Assembly (NCBI RefSeq): GCF_013122565.1 | Contig: NZ_CP053258.1 | DNA length: 64,000 nt | Direction: 5' to 3' (one strand) | Source: Escherichia coli | GTDB lineage: Bacteria > Pseudomonadota > Gammaproteobacteria > Enterobacterales > Enterobacteriaceae | Part shown: positions 2,779 to 16,197 of the stretch, one piece after another | Position numbering within the stretch: the stretch's first letter is position 1 | Layout of the letters: each line of letters starts with the position of its first letter | Notes under the pieces: model-generated | Database searches by the model: none | Seen by the model: the letters and a program-made list of their open reading frames with translations, nothing else | Told to the model about the DNA's origin: nothing | Program-made: the position numbers and the translations under genes

Positions 2779-3974
<1,196 letters not shown>

Positions 3975-4009
3975 GACGTTGTACCCTACAAAAACAATGA
4001 GGATTGTTT

Positions 4010-6460: not shown

Positions 6461-7450
6461 ATGACAGAGAAAACTCTTGCCAGTCCGAAACCTTCGGAAA
6501 TTCCCATTGCAAATAATTTTAAAAAAGTCTTCAGGCAATATGGCGGTATCCTCAGTGGAATGGTGGTGTTAATCATTCTGTTCAGTTTTATTAATGACAG
6601 TTTTTTTACCGCCAATAACATTACTAATATTATTCTTCAGGTTTCGATAATTGCAATTACCGCCTATGGAATGACTTATGTACTTTTGCTTGGCGATATT
6701 GATTTATCGGTCGGTTCAACCATTGCATTGATTGGCACATTTGCTGCGCTTGGGGCTTCATGGGGAATTCCATTTATTTTATTGGTCCCATTATCCATTA
6801 TTGCAGCACTGGCTCTGGGGATGATAAATGGTGGCTTGACGGCTATAGCGGGGATCCCCTCGTTTATTGTCACCGTTGCTACTATGGGGATCTTCCGTGG
6901 TATCGCTTATATCGTGACCGATGGTATGCCCATCATGATTAAAGATGATGCCTTTCTGGCGCTGGGGAATGGAGAATTTCTCTATATACCTATTCCTATC
7001 TGGATATTAATCATCTTATTGCTGATTAACCATTTCATTCTTACTAAAACAACCTTTGGACGAAAAATTTATATCACTGGTGGTAATAAAGAAGCGGCAG
7101 TTTATTCAGGGATAAATGTCACCCGCTTGAAAATTAAAGTCTTTATGATCACAGCCGTGCTGGCAGGTATCAGCGGGATGATCCTCGCCTCACGCCTCTA
7201 TTCCGGGCAACCGAATTCCGCGTTGAGCTACGAACTGGATGCTATTGCTGCGGCTGTACTGGGAGGCACCAGCCTGAACGGTGGCTATGGAACCGTGGTG
7301 GGGACGGTGATCGGCGCATTAACCATCGGCGTTATCAATAATGGCATGAACTTAATGAATGTTCCCTATTTTTACCAGATGGTGGTTAAAGGATTAGTCA
7401 TTCTTGTAGCCGTTTATTTTGACGTAAGAAATAAAAGAAAACGCAGCTAA
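6461..7450 (+). CDS. ABC transporter permease (RbsC-like)
   Basis: 329-aa highly hydrophobic multi-TM ORF; ATG immediately follows the ATPase stop (translational coupling). Confidence 0.8.
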   Translation: MTEKTLASPKPSEIPIANNFKKVFRQYGGILSGMVVLIILFSFINDSFFTANNITNIILQVSIIAITAYGMTYVLLLGDIDLSVGSTIALIGTFAALGASWGIPFILLVPLSIIAALALGMINGGLTAIAGIPSFIVTVATMGIFRGIAYIVTDGMPIMIKDDAFLALGNGEFLYIPIPIWILIILLLINHFILTKTTFGRKIYITGGNKEAAVYSGINVTRLKIKVFMITAVLAGISGMILASRLYSGQPNSALSYELDAIAAAVLGGTSLNGGYGTVVGTVIGALTIGVINNGMNLMNVPYFYQMVVKGLVILVAVYFDVRNKRKRS

Positions 7451-7471
7451 TCATTTCAAGGAATTAATCAT

Positions 7472-8434
7472 ATGAGTAAGGTCTTCACAATTGGAGAAAT
7501 TCTGGTTGAAATTATGGCGAGTAAAATCGGCCAGCCATTTGATCAACCAGGTATCTGGAACGGCCCTTATCCCAGTGGTGCGCCCGCTATTTTTATCGAC
7601 CAGGTGACACGTCTTGGCGTTCCGTGCGGCATCATTAGCTGTGTGGGGAATGATGGCTTTGGTGATATTAATATACATCGTCTGGCTGCTGACGGTGTGG
7701 ATATCAGGGGGATTTCAGTCTTACCTCTGGAAGCCACCGGGAGTGCCTTTGTTACTTATCATAACTCTGGCGATCGCGATTTTATTTTTAATATTAAGAA
7801 TGCCGCTTGCGGTAAATTATCGGCACAGCATGTTGATGAAAATATTCTGAAGGACTGTACCCATTTTCATATTATGGGCTCATCCCTGTTTTCGTTTCAT
7901 ATGGTAGACGCAGTAAAAAAAGCGGTAACCATCGTTAAAGCAAATGGTGGCGTTATTTCTTTCGACCCTAATATTCGAAAAGAGATGCTCGATATTCCAG
8001 AAATGCGTGACGCCCTTCACTTTGTTCTTGAGTTAACGGATATCTATATGCCCAGCGAGGGCGAAGTGTTGCTCTTGTCGCCACATTCGACGCCGGAGCG
8101 TGCAATCGCTGGTTTTCTTGAAGAAGGTGTTAAAGAGGTGATTGTGAAGCGCGGCAATCAAGGTGCCAGTTACTACTCCGCGAATGAGCAGTTTCATGTG
8201 AAGAGCTATCCGGTGGAAGAAGTTGACCCGACCGGTGCGGGAGACTGCTTTGGTGGCGCGTGGATTGCCTGCCGCCAGCTAGGGTTTGACGCCCATCGGG
8301 CATTACAATATGCCAACGCCTGCGGTGCACTGGCGGTAACCCGACGTGGCCCAATGGAGGGAACGTCTCGCCTTGCGGAAATCGAAGCGTTCATCCAGCG
8401 CCATGACATGTCCATTCGGGAAGCAGCACAATGA
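7472..8434 (+). CDS. PfkB-family carbohydrate kinase (island kinase 2)
   Basis: 320-aa ORF with PfkB motifs (DPTGAGDCFG, GG..N region); AAGGA RBS; paralog of kinase 1. Confidence 0.85.
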   Translation: MSKVFTIGEILVEIMASKIGQPFDQPGIWNGPYPSGAPAIFIDQVTRLGVPCGIISCVGNDGFGDINIHRLAADGVDIRGISVLPLEATGSAFVTYHNSGDRDFIFNIKNAACGKLSAQHVDENILKDCTHFHIMGSSLFSFHMVDAVKKAVTIVKANGGVISFDPNIRKEMLDIPEMRDALHFVLELTDIYMPSEGEVLLLSPHSTPERAIAGFLEEGVKEVIVKRGNQGASYYSANEQFHVKSYPVEEVDPTGAGDCFGGAWIACRQLGFDAHRALQYANACGALAVTRRGPMEGTSRLAEIEAFIQRHDMSIREAAQ

Positions 8435-9477
8435 AAAACGAAATTTGGTCGTGGATTGGCGATCTCTCGCAGGTTGCCGGAATTAAACACTATGAGTTAC
8501 GTAGTGGCAGAGCAAAGGGTACAGAAGCATTTGATGTCCGTACTGGTGCGGGACTGGCATTTACGGTGGTAAAAGATCGCGCGCTGGATATTGCATGGGC
8601 CAGCTACAAGGACACGGCGCTCTCTTTTATCACCCCCAACGGCATTGTCGCCCCCGCTTTTTTTGAGTCTCAGGGCAACGGATTTTTACGTAGCTTTTAC
8701 GCGGGGTTACTGACTACCTGCGGACTTAGCTACATTGGCACGCCCTGTGAGGATGAAGGAGAAACGCTGGGGTTACACGGGCGTTTGGCTGCGACTCCAG
8801 CAGAAGAGGTGGGGTATCGCACAGAACGGACCGACGACGGCATTGAATTTGTCATCAATGGCAAAGTACGGGAAACGCGATTGTTCGGTGAAAATCTGAC
8901 GCTGGAAAGGACCATTCGCTGCCGTTATGGCGAAAATGTGCTGCGCATTGAAGACAAGGTGACTAATCATGGTTTCACCCGCCAGCCGCTGCAAATTCTT
9001 TATCACTTTAATTACGGCTGGCCTTTATTATCGCCACAGGCAGAAATCTTGCTGTCGGCTAAAAGCGTAACGCCACGAACTCCGCATGCGGCGGAAGGGT
9101 TAACCAGTCATCTGGAGATTTGTACCCCACAGCCCGGTTTTGACGAGCAGGTTTACTATCTCACGTTGAATAGCGACAGTCAGGGGATGAGTAAAGTTGC
9201 GCTGGTGAACGCCGAACTGGGGTGGGGAATTTACGAGAAATTCGACACCATGCAGCTACCCAACTTTATCCAGTGGAAAAATTTAGGCGCGGGTGAATAT
9301 GTTATGGGACTGGAGGTCAGTAATAGTTTTCCTGACGGTCGTGATAAAGAACGAGCGCAGGGGCGTCTGCCCTTTATTGAGCCAGGGGAAACAAAGAAAT
9401 ACTGCTTTGAGCTGGGAATTGTTGATGGTGATGCTGAAATTAGCGCGTTGAAAGCGGAAATTGCAGGCTACCGTTAG
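8431..9477 (+). CDS. Conserved protein of unknown function, possibly aldose-epimerase-like fold (unverified)
   Basis: 348-aa ORF whose ATG overlaps the kinase 2 stop (ATGA), last gene of the + strand island operon; no transmembrane or signal features; family assignment is from memory only. Confidence 0.6.
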   Translation: MKNEIWSWIGDLSQVAGIKHYELRSGRAKGTEAFDVRTGAGLAFTVVKDRALDIAWASYKDTALSFITPNGIVAPAFFESQGNGFLRSFYAGLLTTCGLSYIGTPCEDEGETLGLHGRLAATPAEEVGYRTERTDDGIEFVINGKVRETRLFGENLTLERTIRCRYGENVLRIEDKVTNHGFTRQPLQILYHFNYGWPLLSPQAEILLSAKSVTPRTPHAAEGLTSHLEICTPQPGFDEQVYYLTLNSDSQGMSKVALVNAELGWGIYEKFDTMQLPNFIQWKNLGAGEYVMGLEVSNSFPDGRDKERAQGRLPFIEPGETKKYCFELGIVDGDAEISALKAEIAGYR

Positions 9478-9485
9478 CTAACGGC

Positions 9486-9521
9486 AATAAAAACGCCGGG
9501 CAGCGTTAACAGGCCCGGCGT
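9486..9521 (-). terminator. Rho-independent terminator downstream of accC (minus strand)
   Basis: GC stem CGCCGGGC / GCCCGGCG (9494..9501 and 9513..9520) followed on the minus strand by TTTTTATT; lies between accC and the island. Confidence 0.6.
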
Positions 9522-9567
9522 TGATTACGTTCTTTGCTAAGCGCGATGAACCACCGCGCGTCACAAA

Positions 9568-10917
9568 TTATTTTTCCTGAAGACCGAGTTTTTTCTCCAG
9601 ATAGTGGATGTTAGTGCCACCATGCTGGAAGTTCTCGTCATTCATGATGCGGATCTGCAGATCAACGTTGGTTTTGATACCGTCGATGATCAGCTCCTGC
9701 AGCGCATTCTTCATGCGGGCAATCGCCACGTCACGGTTTTCACCGTAGCAAATCAGCTTACCGATCATTGAGTCATAGTACGGCGGTACGGTGTAGCCCG
9801 CGTAGATATGAGACTCCCAACGTACGCCAAAACCGCCAGGTGCGTGGAAACGGGTGATTTTGCCCGGGCTTGGCAGGAAGGTGTTCGGATCTTCGGCGTT
9901 GATACGACATTCCACCGCATGGCCGCGAACGTGAACTTCTTCTTGCTTGATCGACAGCGGTTGACCGGCAGCGATACGCAGCTGTTCTTTGATCAGGTCA
10001 ACGCCGGTGATCATTTCTGTAACCGGGTGTTCTACCTGAATACGGGTGTTCATTTCGATGAAATAGAACTCGCCGTTTTCGAACAGGAACTCGAAAGTAC
10101 CTGCACCGCGATAGCCGATATCAACACACGCTTTAGCGCAACGTTCGCCGATGTAGCGACGCAGTTCCGGGGTAATGCCCGGTGCTGGTGCTTCTTCGAC
10201 CACTTTCTGGTGGCGGCGCTGCATGGAGCAGTCACGTTCCGCCAGATAGATAGCGTTGCCCTGACCGTCAGCCAGTACCTGAATCTCGACGTGGCGAGGA
10301 TTTTCCAGGTATTTCTCCATGTAAACCATATCGTTGCTGAAAGCAGCTTTCGCTTCCGCACGGGTCATGGAGATGGATTGTGCCAGTTCAGCGTCGCCGC
10401 GCACTACGCGCATACCGCGACCACCGCCGCCGCCGGAGGCTTTGATAATCACCGGATAACCAATGCGTTTAGCAATGGCACGGTTTTTATCCATATCGTC
10501 GCCCAGCGGGCCGTCAGAACCCGGTACGCAAGGGACGCCCGCTTTTTTCATCGCCGCGATTGCGGATACTTTGTCGCCCATCAGGCGAATGGTTTCTGCT
10601 TTCGGGCCAATGAAGATAAAGCCGGAGCGTTCAACCTGCTCTGCAAAGTTGGCGTTCTCGGAGAGGAAGCCGTAACCCGGATGGATTGCTACTGCGCCGG
10701 TGATTTCAGCGGCGCTGATGATTGCCGGGATGTTCAGATAACTTTTTACTGACGGAGCAGGGCCAATACAGACCGTTTCATCTGCCAGTAATACGTGTTT
10801 TAGATCGCGATCCGCGCTGGAGTGCACAGCGACAGTCTTGATGCCCAGTTCTTTACAGGCACGAAGAATACGCAATGCAATCTCGCCGCGGTTGGCAATA
10901 ACAATTTTATCCAGCAT
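9568..10917 (-). CDS. accC: Biotin carboxylase subunit of acetyl-CoA carboxylase
   Basis: 449-aa product [27 protein letters not shown]... recognisable as AccC; track ORF extends 13 codons upstream. Confidence 0.95.
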
Positions 10918-10927
10918 GTTCGCCTCG

Positions 10928-11398
10928 TTACTCGATGACGACCAGCGGCTCGTCAAATTCTACCGGTTGTCCACTTTCGACCAGAATTGCTTTCACGGTA
11001 CCGGATTTGTCCGCTTCGATCTGGTTCATCATTTTCATGGCTTCAACGATGCACAGGGTATCGCCCACGTTGACTTTCTGACCCACTTCGATGAACGCTT
11101 TTGCGTCCGGGCTTGGGGTGCGGTAGAAAGTACCAACCATCGGGGAGCGTACGATGTGACCACTGATTTCCGCTGCTGCTGGCGCTTCCATGGAAGGAAC
11201 GGTCGCCGGAGCGGCTGCGTTAGATTGAGCTGGCTGCTGCATCATTGGTGCAGCGTAAGCTTGTTGCATCACAGGGAAACTTGCGGCAGGAGCTGCACGG
11301 CTAATGCGTACTGACTCTTCGCCTTCAGAAATTTCCAGTTCGGAGATGCCTGATTCTTCAACCAGCTCGATCAGTTTTTTAATCTTACGAATATCCAT
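10928..11398 (-). CDS. accB: Biotin carboxyl carrier protein (BCCP)
   Basis: 156-aa product with Ala/Pro-rich linker and the biotinylation motif EAMKMMN. Confidence 0.95.
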
Positions 11399-12165
11399 GA
11401 GTGGGTTCCGTACTCTTTGTTTAGTGTGATTGTGACAGGCGTTTCACCGCCGTCTGTAAAGCGTATGCCCCGACAGCTGTATGCATAGCGATAAATTCCA
11501 GCAGGCCGGGACGCCGGTCTATTTTGCCCCAGAGTGTCAATGTTAGACTTGACGGACATTGTGCAGCGATCTGCTGCTATCCTCCGGCAAAAAACAAAAT
11601 ATACCTTCGTTGCGCCAATGTCACCTTTTCCGCAGCGCAAAAACTGCGTCAGGGAGGACGAGGTCGCACATTATAACGATTTCGTAGCAATTGGCAGCTA
11701 AATACTGGTCTTATCAGGGAAGATAATCAACAGCTAACATGTAAATAACCTTCAACACCGTGTAATTTGCAACAAGCCGCACAATTCACGAAATTAGCGC
11801 CATCATCGACGGAACTTCTTATAACGTAAGGTGAAAAGCTGTAAAGCCAGCCCTGCGAAGATGAGGGGCTGCAATGAGATAATCTTCACAGACCACAAAT
11901 AATGTAGGGATGCCAGGATCGCGACAAGATAGACGACATTACGCAGCGGTTGCTGGGGATTACCCAATTTTCACTGCATCGTCTGGATAGATGTGAATGC
12001 TAAAGCACGCAAAATTAACCGATTGACAATGCTCAGCATTAAATAGGTTCGAGTGATTAATTTGTAGTCAAACAAAATCAGATTATTCACCCCATTTTGC
12101 AGAAGGTAAACTGTTTTGTCAGGCGGCAGTGCGGCTATCTGATGCTTTCAGAATTTGCCACCTGA
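11399..12165 (-). promoter_or_regulatory. accBC promoter and long 5' leader region
   Basis: About 770 bp non-coding region upstream of accB with no convincing ORF; accB is known to have a long leader. Boundaries not mapped. Confidence 0.35.
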
Positions 12166-12200
12166 CAATAAAAAAGCCGATTTGGTAGCAAAATCGGCTT
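12166..12200 (-). terminator. Rho-independent terminator downstream of the 276-aa hypothetical gene (minus strand)
   Basis: Stem AGCCGATTT / AAATCGGCT (12175..12183 and 12191..12199) with a 7-nt loop, followed on the minus strand by TTTTTTAT. Confidence 0.55.
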
Positions 12201-12263
12201 CGGTGAGTTTGCGGCATTCATCACATACTCCGACAAGCTTTTTCAAGCATGACGGAGGTTGCG

Positions 12264-13094
12264 TTAATGCAAGGTTTCTACCCAGGGATAAAAGTGACCG
12301 TTACGGCGGATGAATATCTGTGTTGTCAGAGGATGGTCATCCTCACGGAAGCATTGTTCTGTTAACTGTCGTAATGCGCTGAGATTTGCTGGCTGATCAT
12401 TGTGGGTGAAAAACAGTTTTCCTCGGGAGGGAACAGTCACTAACAGGTCGCCGCATTCAGGATCGGGTGATTGCACCCAAAGATCGTCAATGAGCATCAG
12501 ACTGGGCTCATAAGTACCCCCTGCGGAGATAACGGCAACTTTTCCATCGTTTGCGCCTGTATCAACGATTTCAGCCGTAACTTCCGGCAATATTTGCTTC
12601 AAATTACTGATGGCTTGTTCGCGGTCAATGGTCACTTCGTAGCGCATCAGATAGCGCATGGTTTCGCTACCATCTTCAGCAAACAAGATAATTAACTCAT
12701 CGTTAAAGTCTTCCCAGGCAAAATCCAGCGAGGCGTTGAGGACCTCTGGATCAGACTCATACTGGCTAAGCTGTTGGCGAACGGTATCCAGCCAGGCTTT
12801 TTCTTTAATCACCGGAACAATACAGCGCCCGGTCGGCAGCATTTCTGCAAGCTGTTTCAGCATATCTGCAGCCACTTCTTGCAGCGGGTCTGGTGCGGCT
12901 TGATAACGTTTGTAGGCATCATCAAGGGTGATTTCCACCGTTTGGTGACCCGTATCAATGCGCATCAATTTATGGTCAGTCGAAATCATGACTTTCCAGT
13001 TTGGATGATGTTGTACAACTTCATGACCAAGATGTTCGACGAAAGCTGTCCGGCTAACCGCTTTTCCCGTTAACCGATTGAATAATGATTTCAA
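12264..13094 (-). CDS. Hypothetical protein, 276 aa, function unknown
   Basis: Long ORF downstream of acuI on the same strand; probable TTG start with GAGGG RBS; own terminator; no family recognised by eye. Confidence 0.6.
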   Translation of the reverse strand: MKSLFNRLTGKAVSRTAFVEHLGHEVVQHHPNWKVMISTDHKLMRIDTGHQTVEITLDDAYKRYQAAPDPLQEVAADMLKQLAEMLPTGRCIVPVIKEKAWLDTVRQQLSQYESDPEVLNASLDFAWEDFNDELIILFAEDGSETMRYLMRYEVTIDREQAISNLKQILPEVTAEIVDTGANDGKVAVISAGGTYEPSLMLIDDLWVQSPDPECGDLLVTVPSRGKLFFTHNDQPANLSALRQLTEQCFREDDHPLTTQIFIRRNGHFYPWVETLH

Positions 13095-13130
13095 AATGAG
13101 TTCCCTCTCTTATTAATCCTTGCTAAATGG

Positions 13131-14105
13131 TTAGTTAACCTTCACCAGCGTGCGACCCTGGATCTGGTTATTAATGATGGCCTCGGCAAACTTCGGTGCC
13201 TCTGCCAGAGATATCTCTTTTGCCGCCTGGGTATAGAATGATTCCGGTAAATCGGCGACCAGTCGCTGCCAGGCTTGTGCGCGGCGTGCTGGTGGCGTCA
13301 TTACTGAATCCACCCCTTGCAAACGGACATTACGCAGAATAAATGGCATGACCGTGGTTGGCAGAGTAAAACCACCCGCCAGACCACAGGCCGCCACGCA
13401 GCCGCCGTAATTCATTTGCGCCAGCACTTTTGCCAGCACTTTGTCGCCAACGGTGTCAATTGCCCCAGCCCAGACTTGTTTTTCCAGAGGACGGGATTCG
13501 GCAAACTCATCACGAGGGAGAATACGGCTGGCACCTAAACTTTTCAGATATTCATGGGTACTTTCGCGACCGGAAACGGCAACGACCTGATAACCCAACT
13601 TATGCAGCAGCGCCACGGCGGTACTGCCGACGCCACCACTGGCACCCGTCACGACAATCTCCCCGTCCTGCGGGCGAACACCGGCATCTTCCAGCGCCAT
13701 CACACACAGCATGGCGGTAAAACCGGCAGTACCGATAATCATTGCTTTACGCGCGTCCAGCCCTTGCGGCATGGCAACCAGCCAGTCACCTTTCACTCGC
13801 GCCTGCTCCGCCAGCCCACCCCAGTGGTTTTCACCAACGCCCCAGCCAGTGAGTAACACCTCCTGACCGGCATGAAAACGCGGATCTTCGCTGGTGCGTA
13901 CAGTTCCGGCAAAATCGATCCCAGGAATCATCGGAAAATTACGGATGATTTTTCCCTTACCGGTAATCGCCAGCGCATCTTTATAGTTCAGGCTCGACCA
14001 GTGAACATCGACCGTGACATCGCCCTCCGGCAGGCGACTTTCGTCCAGAGTCTGTACTGATGCGAGAGTTTTGCCGTCCTGCTGTTCTAAAAGTAACGCC
14101 TGCAT
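13131..14105 (-). CDS. acuI: Acrylyl-CoA reductase AcuI/YhdH (MDR-family NADPH oxidoreductase)
   Basis: 324-aa product MQALLLEQQDGKTLASVQTLDESRLPEGDVTVDV... with the nucleotide-binding motif GASGGVGS. Confidence 0.9.
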   Translation of the reverse strand: MQALLLEQQDGKTLASVQTLDESRLPEGDVTVDVHWSSLNYKDALAITGKGKIIRNFPMIPGIDFAGTVRTSEDPRFHAGQEVLLTGWGVGENHWGGLAEQARVKGDWLVAMPQGLDARKAMIIGTAGFTAMLCVMALEDAGVRPQDGEIVVTGASGGVGSTAVALLHKLGYQVVAVSGRESTHEYLKSLGASRILPRDEFAESRPLEKQVWAGAIDTVGDKVLAKVLAQMNYGGCVAACGLAGGFTLPTTVMPFILRNVRLQGVDSVMTPPARRAQAWQRLVADLPESFYTQAAKEISLAEAPKFAEAIINNQIQGRTLVKVN

Positions 14106-14256
14106 AAGTGGTCCTCATGTGCATGATGGATTGGAAAATAATTTCTGAAGACTATACTCGCTAATGGAAAAGCAAAGCCGATGAAGCGCAATAAATTGCG
14201 AGATAAATCTGATTTGCTAGTATGCCCGCTTCCTCACTATCGGAGTTAACACAAGG

Positions 14257-16197
14257 ATGAGATTAACGACGAAATTTTCGGCCTTTGTTACGCTGCTCAC
14301 CGGGTTAACAATTTTTGTGACTTTGCTGGGCTGTTCGCTAAGTTTCTACAATGCAATTCAGTATAAGTTTAGTCATCGCGTTCAGGCGGTGGCGACGGCG
14401 ATTGATACCCACCTTGTGTCGAATGACTTCAGCGCATTAAGGCCACAAATTACCGAATTAATGATGTCAGCCGATATCGTTCGTGTAGACCTGCTGCATG
14501 GTGATAAACAGGTTTATACCCTGGCCAGAAATGGTAGTTATCGTCCGGTTGGCACCAGCGATCTGTTTCGCGAGCTGAGCGTTCCGTTGATAAAGCATCC
14601 GGGGATGTCGCTGCGTCTGGTTTATCAGGATCCGATGGGCAACTATTTCCATTCGTTGATGACCACCGCGCCGCTCACGGGGGCGATTGGCTTTATCATT
14701 CTTATGCTCTTTCTGGCGGTACGCTGGTTACAACGGCAACTTGCCGGGCAAGAATTGTTGGAAACCCGGGCTACTCGTATCTTAAACGGTGAGCGTGGCT
14801 CTAATGTGTTGGGAACCATCTATGAATGGCCGCCCAGAACCAGCAGTGCGCTGGATACGCTGCTTCGTGAAATTCAGAACGCACGCGAACAACACAGCCG
14901 TCTTGATACGCTGATCCGCTCTTATGCCGCCCAAGACGTGAAAACCGGCCTCAATAACCGACTCTTTTTCGATAATCAGTTAGCAACGTTACTGGAAGAT
15001 CAGGAGAAAGTAGGTACCCACGGGATCGTGATGATGATTCGTCTGCCGGATTTCAATATGTTGAGCGATACCTGGGGGCACAGCCAGGTTGAAGAACAGT
15101 TCTTCACTCTGACGAATCTGCTGTCGACATTTATGATGCGCTACCCTGGCGCACTGCTGGCGCGTTACCACCGTAGTGATTTTGCTGCGCTGTTGCCGCA
15201 CCGGACGTTAAAAGAGGCAGAGAGCATCGCCGGTCAGTTAATCAAAGCCGTCGATACCTTGCCGAACAATAAAATGCTCGATCGCGACGATATGATCCAC
15301 ATCGGTATCTGCGCCTGGCGTAGTGGTCAGGATACCGAGCAGGTAATGGAACATGCAGAGTCTGCCACGCGTAATGCGGGATTGCAGGGCGGCAATAGCT
15401 GGGCTATTTACGATGACTCGTTGCCTGAAAAAGGACGCGGTAATGTTCGCTGGCGTACGCTTATCGAGCAAATGCTCAGTCGCGGCGGCCCGCGCCTTTA
15501 TCAAAAACCGGCGGTTACTCGCGAAGGTCAGGTTCATCATCGCGAACTCATGTGCCGCATCTTCGATGGTAATGAAGAGGTTAGCTCGGCGGAGTATATG
15601 CCGATGGTCTTGCAGTTTGGCTTATCGGAAGAGTATGACCGTCTGCAAATCAGCCGTCTTATTCCACTATTGCGTTACTGGCCGGAGGAAAATCTGGCGA
15701 TTCAGGTTACCGTTGAGTCGCTGATTCGCCCGCGTTTTCAGCGTTGGCTGCGCGATACGTTAATGCAATGTGAAAAATCACAACGAAAACGCATAATTAT
15801 TGAACTTGCAGAGGCCGATGTAGGTCAACATATCAGTCGTTTACAACCTGTTATTCGTTTAGTGAATGCTTTAGGGGTACGGGTAGCCGTCAACCAGGCT
15901 GGTTTGACGCTGGTTAGCACCAGTTGGATCAAAGAACTTAATGTTGAGTTACTCAAGCTCCATCCGGGGCTGGTCAGAAACATTGAGAAGCGAACGGAGA
16001 ACCAGCTGCTGGTTCAAAGCCTGGTGGAAGCCTGCTCCGGGACCAGCACCCAGGTTTACGCCACCGGTGTGCGTTCGCGAAGCGAGTGGCAGACCCTGAT
16101 TCAGCGCGGTGTTACAGGTGGGCAAGGGGATTTTTTCGCGTCCTCACAGCCACTTGATACTAACGTGAAAAAATATTCACAAAGATACTCGGTTTAA
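14257..16197 (+). CDS. csrD: RNase E specificity factor CsrD (degenerate GGDEF-EAL protein)
   Basis: 646-aa ORF with two N-terminal TM segments followed by GGDEF-like and EAL-like regions. Confidence 0.9.
   Translation: MRLTTKFSAFVTLLTGLTIFVTLLGCSLSFYNAIQYKFSHRVQAVATAIDTHLVSNDFSALRPQITELMMSADIVRVDLLHGDKQVYTLARNGSYRPVGTSDLFRELSVPLIKHPGMSLRLVYQDPMGNYFHSLMTTAPLTGAIGFIILMLFLAVRWLQRQLAGQELLETRATRILNGERGSNVLGTIYEWPPRTSSALDTLLREIQNAREQHSRLDTLIRSYAAQDVKTGLNNRLFFDNQLATLLEDQEKVGTHGIVMMIRLPDFNMLSDTWGHSQVEEQFFTLTNLLSTFMMRYPGALLARYHRSDFAALLPHRTLKEAESIAGQLIKAVDTLPNNKMLDRDDMIHIGICAWRSGQDTEQVMEHAESATRNAGLQGGNSWAIYDDSLPEKGRGNVRWRTLIEQMLSRGGPRLYQKPAVTREGQVHHRELMCRIFDGNEEVSSAEYMPMVLQFGLSEEYDRLQISRLIPLLRYWPEENLAIQVTVESLIRPRFQRWLRDTLMQCEKSQRKRIIIELAEADVGQHISRLQPVIRLVNALGVRVAVNQAGLTLVSTSWIKELNVELLKLHPGLVRNIEKRTENQLLVQSLVEACSGTSTQVYATGVRSRSEWQTLIQRGVTGGQGDFFASSQPLDTNVKKYSQRYSV

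Follow-up and report, generated by a model that had tools for sequence, protein, structure and literature searches.

The only relative of the protein described here to have been assayed is YtpQ/CgoN of Priestia megaterium, which anaerobically converts coproporphyrinogen III to coproporphyrin III with FAD and menadione (PMC10965808), in a slow reaction with a kcat of 0.63 per min (PMC10965808). Staphylococcus aureus can make haem anaerobically without its homologue (PMC6620371), and because of this result and the low kcat we regard the CgoN assignment of the family as weak. In Bacillus subtilis, YtpQ is regulated by Spx, and in ytpQ mutants the regulons of Fur and PerR are derepressed and iron homeostasis is disturbed (PMC3176815).

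We analysed a stretch of 64,000 nucleotides from Escherichia coli (contig NZ_CP053258.1), here called the window, which carries a 276-aa reading frame, ORF276, between acuI and accB. We are confident that ORF276 is an intact accessory gene whose product is soluble, cytoplasmic and a member of the Gram-negative branch of the DUF1444/UPF0354 (YtpQ/CgoN) superfamily, at a locus with a two-deletion history; this confidence covers the identity and history of the gene and not its biochemistry. ORF276 is real, intact and selectively maintained, and K-12 lacks it. In kind the gene is an ordinary one and represents no new system. It offers an E. coli-tractable way into a family for which CgoN, the one function so far proposed, is disputed.

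The gene, its signals and its neighbours

The gene and its immediate surroundings in the window are as follows.

12264..13094, minus strand: ORF276, DUF1444-superfamily protein of 276 aa, stop codon included (ORF list and matching PGAP coordinates)
13103..13107, minus strand: GAGGG ribosome-binding site, 8 nt 5' of the TTG start at 13094..13092 (read from the sequence)
13131..14105, minus strand: acuI (yhdH), the gene upstream of ORF276 (ORF list and annotation)
12164..12201, minus strand: rho-independent terminator, whose 11-bp stem (GAAGCCGATTT / AAATCGGCTTT) encloses a 7-nt loop and precedes a T run (terminator scan and fold)

ORF276 is already catalogued in RefSeq: PGAP gives it identical coordinates in two other strains (WP_032222325.1 and WP_000838295.1) under the label "hypothetical protein", and newer annotation runs have already named it "DUF1444 domain-containing protein". 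A sequence-only reading of the window had described a well-formed but uncharacterised 276-aa frame just downstream of acuI on the same strand, with a GAGGG ribosome-binding site, a probable TTG start and its own rho-independent terminator. That description agrees with what we find, the terminator that it put at 12166..12200 being the hairpin at 12201..12173, which folds at -14.5 kcal/mol (z -2.35). Its statement that no family could be assigned needs correcting, as ORF276 is a divergent member of the DUF1444/UPF0354 (YtpQ) superfamily.

With regard to the start, an in-frame TAA lies six codons 5' of the TTG, which therefore represents the sole start that takes in the conserved N-terminal helix of the protein. 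The arrangement GAGAGGGAACTCATT-TTG is also kept at the corresponding locus of a cryptic Escherichia (L033), where the orthologue likewise starts at TTG, while paralogues of 62% identity start at an ATG one codon upstream. The predicted product is a protein of 31.5 kDa with a pI of 4.9 and no signal peptide.

Only 36 nt separate acuI from ORF276 on the same strand, and in this gap a terminator scan found no terminator and no promoter-like site was seen; for these reasons the two genes are probably co-transcribed. An Rfam scan of 11300..14300 gave no match near a gathering score. The local neighbours of ORF276 are csrD, acuI, remnants of msrP and msrQ, accB and accC.

Membership of the DUF1444 superfamily and comparison with CgoN

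Direct comparison of ORF276 with the curated models gives matches below the family cut-offs. Pfam PF07285 (DUF1444) matches residues 29-270 with profile positions 15-254 of 264, at 17.3 bits (E 0.0038) against a gathering threshold of 23.8 bits, and NCBIfam PRK13668 (NF010189) matches over the full length with an E of 8e-5, at 22.4 bits against an equivalog cut-off of 221. The relatives of ORF276 make the case more strongly. A phmmer search of 1.84 billion representatives returned 1014 clusters at E<=1e-3, 383 of them at E<=1e-10, the relatives being about 280 aa long and some 30-39% identical over the full length; PF07285 matched 119 of 124 of them (best E 5.8e-20), and their precomputed Pfam labels agree. 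A profile search of a 5.8-billion-protein set did not reach Bacillus YtpQ. We aligned the profile of the relatives by hhalign to 23 genuine Bacillaceae YtpQ sequences, P. megaterium included, for which a B. subtilis-type YtpQ sequence (432 bits on PRK13668) served as search seed and only the database sequences returned were used. The alignment covered 243 columns at 18% identity with a probability of 99.2% and an E of 1e-19, and on this alignment the homology of ORF276 with the DUF1444/UPF0354 superfamily is secure.

An AlphaFold model of ORF276 built from the alignment has a pLDDT of 90.6, with low confidence in the first 10 residues, and its blocks of secondary structure appear consistent with the three-domain layout published for CgoN (PMC10965808). 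Among solved structures we found none with this architecture, and searching the PDB by sequence, with the protein as well as the family profile, produced no match below E 0.2. ORF276 would be predicted to share the family's three-domain alpha/beta fold and, judging from its homologues, most likely binds a small ligand in an inter-domain cleft. The putative lining of this cleft, shared across the superfamily, would comprise P94-V-I-K97, D141, R147, N164, Y195-E196-x-S198 and P222. The superfamily core kept in ORF276 consists of P94-V-I-K97, A139, D141, R147, N164, Y195-E196-x-S198, L201, G215, P222, T257 and F261.

Could ORF276 then be a functional CgoN, that is, an oxygen-independent, FAD-dependent coproporphyrinogen III oxidase like P. 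megaterium YtpQ? The two proteins are homologous over their whole length (276 and 270 aa), appear from the model to have the same order of elements in three domains, and share P-V-I-(K/R), A-x-D, R147, N164, Y-(E/D)-x-S, G215 and P222; moreover, the activity has been shown for one member of the family (PMC10965808). However, only 23 of the 78 columns that are invariant in YtpQ are identical in ORF276, at an overall identity of about 18%, and the 55 changed positions include histidines and arginines: in P. megaterium numbering, H114 is replaced by F, T118 by L, R119 by I, D180 by G, R186 by L, H210 by S and D212 by G. The score lies far under the equivalog cut-off, and the genomic context is that of acuI and msrPQ and not that of ytpP-ytpQ-ytpR or of haem genes, with cgoX, cpfC and chdC all absent nearby. 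Haem synthesis in E. coli runs through protoporphyrin, and the organism lacks the coproporphyrin-dependent pathway, so that coproporphyrin III would be a dead end. Finally, most relatives in the Gram-negative branch are exported. We consider a CgoN activity of ORF276 very unlikely. On sequence grounds, ORF276 is in the DUF1444 superfamily but is not among the CgoN orthologues, and since most of the YtpQ-invariant residues are missing, the name coproporphyrinogen oxidase is not warranted.

The likeness to B. subtilis YtpQ is similarly partial. Both are cytoplasmic proteins of about 270 aa in the same superfamily, without a known cofactor motif, but E. coli has neither the Spx regulon nor a ytpPQR operon.

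The nearer relatives of ORF276 come from Verrucomicrobiota, Planctomycetota, Acidobacteriota, several Proteobacteria, Hymenobacter and Cardiobacterium, and constitute a Gram-negative DUF1444 branch (in IMG, "uncharacterized protein YtpQ (UPF0354 family)") that is 28-39% identical to ORF276 over the full length. Common to both are the motifs R-I-V-P-V-I-K-D, Y-A-E-D, N-L, A-G-G-x-Y-E-A-S-L-L-L and I-P-x-R. ORF276 differs from the branch in a missing 7-residue segment, in a 6-residue insertion (D-T-G-A-N-D), and in G225, which follows the conserved R224 in place of the D of the clade consensus P-x-R-D. About 60% of the branch carry a signal peptide or lipobox, whereas ORF276 has none, and this proportion of exported relatives agrees poorly with a shared role as a cytoplasmic FAD enzyme. 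The loci of the distant relatives were found by one peptide pattern taken from a 15-sequence alignment, which returned no Enterobacteriaceae; across 24 such loci there were no recurrent gene neighbours, synteny being lineage-local only. As a minor observation, relatives free of signal peptides (within P0016-P0159) often begin with a short basic amphipathic motif, for instance MKRFLSSLFGGRR, MKQLLSRLLSRVG, MRWLRKLLGKGRR or MKSLFNRLTGKA.

As to what ORF276 might do, our best guess is a tentative one: a non-essential helper under stress, related to redox or tetrapyrrole chemistry but distinct from the CgoN reaction itself. It draws by analogy on the CgoN activity of the P. megaterium protein and the iron phenotype of B. 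subtilis ytpQ. Alternatively, and with equal reserve, we speculate that the Gram-negative branch, which has different polar residues at family-invariant sites, might be functionally distinct from Bacillus CgoN and mostly exported, with ORF276 as a rare cytoplasmic derivative carrying a novel DUF1444 activity; to the same speculation belongs the idea that a short motif, SLFNRL, is a fossil of the move of msrPQ to hiuH-zinT (see below).

Two independent deletions at the acuI-accB locus

Unclassified (cryptic-clade) Escherichia strains carry an orthologue of ORF276 of 78% identity. In their contigs (L033-L035), csrD is followed, divergently, by acuI-ORF276-msrP-msrQ-accB-accC, with msrP (Oxidored_molyb) encoding 333 aa and msrQ (Ferric_reduct) 199 aa. 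Set against this arrangement, the window contains the following vestiges.

12122..12219, minus strand: msrP 5' vestige, comprising the leader and the start of the Tat signal peptide, with the terminator hairpin inside it (alignment to L033)
11803..12105, minus strand: msrQ (yedZ) 3' remnant, a pseudogene ending ...LRYKKFRR* (alignment, and a PGAP pseudogene at the equivalent position of L003)
12096..12951, no strand: 856-bp segment missing in K-12-type genomes, which carry in its place 101 bp from further upstream in msrQ (genome comparison)

The leftover msrQ piece is flagged as a pseudogene by PGAP in some strains. Window positions 14105..12122 align to L033 6989..8977, reaching about 100 nt into msrP, and positions 12062..10928 align to L033 10209..11343. 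At the junction between them (12063..12121), some 30-59 nt (…TGACAAAACAGTTTACCTTCTGCAAAAT…) cannot be aligned to the ancestral locus on either side. The window and K-12 alleles compare with L033 as follows.

Window allele: retains 6989-8977 and 10209-11343, loses 8978-10208
K-12 allele: retains 6989-8144 and 10080-11343, loses 8145-10079

Since each allele keeps ancestral sequence that is missing from the other, these alignments show two independent deletions of an intact ancestor. Derivation of the K-12 allele from the window allele, or the reverse, was considered and is ruled out for the same reason. The alignments show that the reconstructed ancestral Escherichia locus, acuI-ORF276-msrP-msrQ-accB, included ORF276. 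By the same comparison, a 1.2-kb deletion in the window lineage spared the whole of ORF276 but took msrP together with half of msrQ, and a separate 1.9-kb deletion in the K-12-type majority took ORF276 from codon 49 onwards. The 977-bp "intergenic" region between acuI and accB in K-12 consists, on this history, of what remains of three wrecked genes, namely ORF276, msrP and msrQ. We find this local history tidy and mildly instructive.

The terminator of ORF276 has its own place in this history. Two E. coli alleles, A30 and S1-ESP, keep its hairpin, but it is not formed in L033, where the same stretch is the msrP leader encoding ...ESAFFMQRRQILK. The 11-bp stem arises in the E. coli alleles through substitutions that the intact locus (L033 8898..8930) lacks, the T run (within 12173..12201) is the former ...TTTTTTT-ATG of the msrP Tat signal start, and the ATG of ...FFM-QRRQILK is changed to ATT in the vestige. 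Read against the intact locus, the terminator is built out of the msrP leader after the loss of msrP.

The working msrPQ of E. coli sits between hiuH and zinT and is 86% identical to L033 8901-10462. From this working copy and the wrecks at acuI-accB, we conclude that the operon moved and that the old copy decayed. Because ORF276 ancestrally lay directly upstream of msrP, one might suppose that it is a cytoplasmic partner of MsrPQ, for instance one that donates electrons to, or handles cofactors for, the haem/flavin protein MsrQ. The ancestral order ORF276-msrP-msrQ with a gap of a mere 45 nt would suit such a role, as would the links made in the literature between the family and flavin, haem and oxidative stress. 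However, the 1562-bp block that carries the working msrPQ begins after ORF276 and excludes it, the searches gave homologues of more than 60% identity only in Escherichia and on mobile elements, and neither the paralogues nor the distant relatives have msrPQ as neighbours. We regard a partnership with MsrPQ as highly improbable.

The relocated copy has a peculiarity of its own. E. coli MsrQ ends ...LRYKKLR-SLFNRLRKQVHNKLSV (3' end of K-12 msrQ, L036 3063..3113), compared with ...LRYKKFRQWWR at the ancestral locus, and its extra tail starts exactly where the homology of the relocated block stops. The motif SLFNRL is common to this tail and to residues 3-8 of ORF276 (window 13088..13071); at the nucleotide level the tail agrees with the L033 orthologue at 15 of 18 positions. 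In 104 of 20000 trials a shuffled tail equalled the local score of the match, and the DNA alone was not significant (BLAST E 6). The match may be a fossil of the msrPQ rearrangement, or it may be chance.

Distribution, selection and origin

A segment specific to ORF276 occurs in 669 of 5426 complete E. coli genomes (about 12%), always chromosomal and in single copy. The acuI-accB interval as such has matches in 5425 of the 5426, with full coverage in only 666. There are two allele groups, one of 344 genomes at >=99% identity and another of 324 genomes at 95-99%, and the carriers include ATCC 8739 and strains of O111:H8, O121 and O145. The gene is therefore conserved well beyond the strain in which the sequence-only reading noticed it, across these 669 genomes and a cryptic Escherichia lineage.

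K-12 W3110, NEB5-alpha and O157:H7 lack window positions 12096..12951 and have 101 other bases there. The earlier impression that no named K-12 gene lies at this position was right, W3110 having no annotated feature between yhdH/acuI and accB, and the comparison of synteny with K-12 that had been proposed explains what is there: K-12 holds only the first 144 nt of ORF276, joined to an msrQ remnant. The ribosome-binding site, the TTG and the first 48 codons survive, followed by a short out-of-frame tail, which makes a remnant of 54 codons; O157:H7 likewise retains just the first 48 codons. In W3110 (L002) this ORF276-msrQ fusion (MKSLFNRLTGKAVSRTAFVEHLGQEVIQHHPNWKVMISTDHKLMRIDTPLNSYY*) occupies 3798..3976, equivalent to window 12952..13130, right behind acuI. 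An ORF b3254, beside yhdT, was listed on early K-12 arrays (PMC1174868), and current K-12 annotation is empty between b3253 (acuI) and b3255 (accB); b3254 was probably an ORF call, since withdrawn, in this remnant region. ORF276 thus fills a gap in the K-12-centred view of acuI-accB, ATCC 8739, O111:H8 and O121 strains having kept a selectable DUF1444 gene.

Against the cryptic-clade orthologue, which also has 276 codons, ORF276 shows a dN of 0.128 and a dS of 1.02, and the resulting dN/dS of 0.125 indicates a coding gene under purifying selection and no chance ORF. Among E. coli alleles dN/dS is 0.05-0.06, compared with 0.028 for acuI. With 937 member sequences, the 276-aa protein forms the largest cluster; calling the gene from an internal ATG, at codon 36, gives a 241-aa version, and the databases hold a few truncated variants of 149-198 aa.

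These data bear on whether ORF276 is a functionless relic heading for deletion, intact only because too little time has passed. The truncated variants, the wreckage of msrP and msrQ at the same locus and the absence of ORF276 from 88% of complete E. coli genomes would all fit such a relic, and the last of these also means that any function must be dispensable. But a dN/dS of 0.125 maintained across a dS of about 1 with the length unchanged, the still lower values among E. coli alleles, the dominance of the 276-aa form, and the conserved ribosome-binding site and start together with a newly formed terminator all speak against such a relic, and we think it unlikely that ORF276 is without function. 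A dispensable but selectively maintained accessory gene, probably now in the course of loss from E. coli, remains our preferred description.

The GC content of ORF276 is 47.4%, compared with 52-56% in acuI, accB and accC, and paralogues of 62-63% identity are found on mobile-element (ICE- or plasmid-like) backbones. One (L005 3898..4731) has KfrA, Aca2 and a ResIII fragment as neighbours, the KfrA-type gene resembling those of enterobacterial plasmids, and another (L032 10001..10834) has DUF2857, IS110, DUF2859 and TraG. Our searches found no homologues above 60% identity outside Escherichia and mobile elements. The low GC and the backbones of the paralogues suggest an old horizontal acquisition by an early Escherichia. 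The same two features, with the patchy distribution among strains, might be taken to mean that ORF276 is mobile-element cargo with a function in conflict, such as immunity or defence against phages, now stranded in the chromosome. PADLOC, however, gave no matches and PHROGs none better than E 0.26; tblastn against phages returned nothing, and the matches in a plasmid collection were mislabelled chromosomes only. In addition, ORF276 is a single gene without a partner, and members of its family are common across many phyla as stand-alone genes on the chromosome. There is, in our estimation, very little chance that ORF276 is such cargo.

It was also observed that, relative to the cryptic clade, the dS of 1.02 in ORF276 is twice that of acuI (0.50), with accB at 0.10. 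Weaker codon bias, or recombination that took another course, may account for the higher value.
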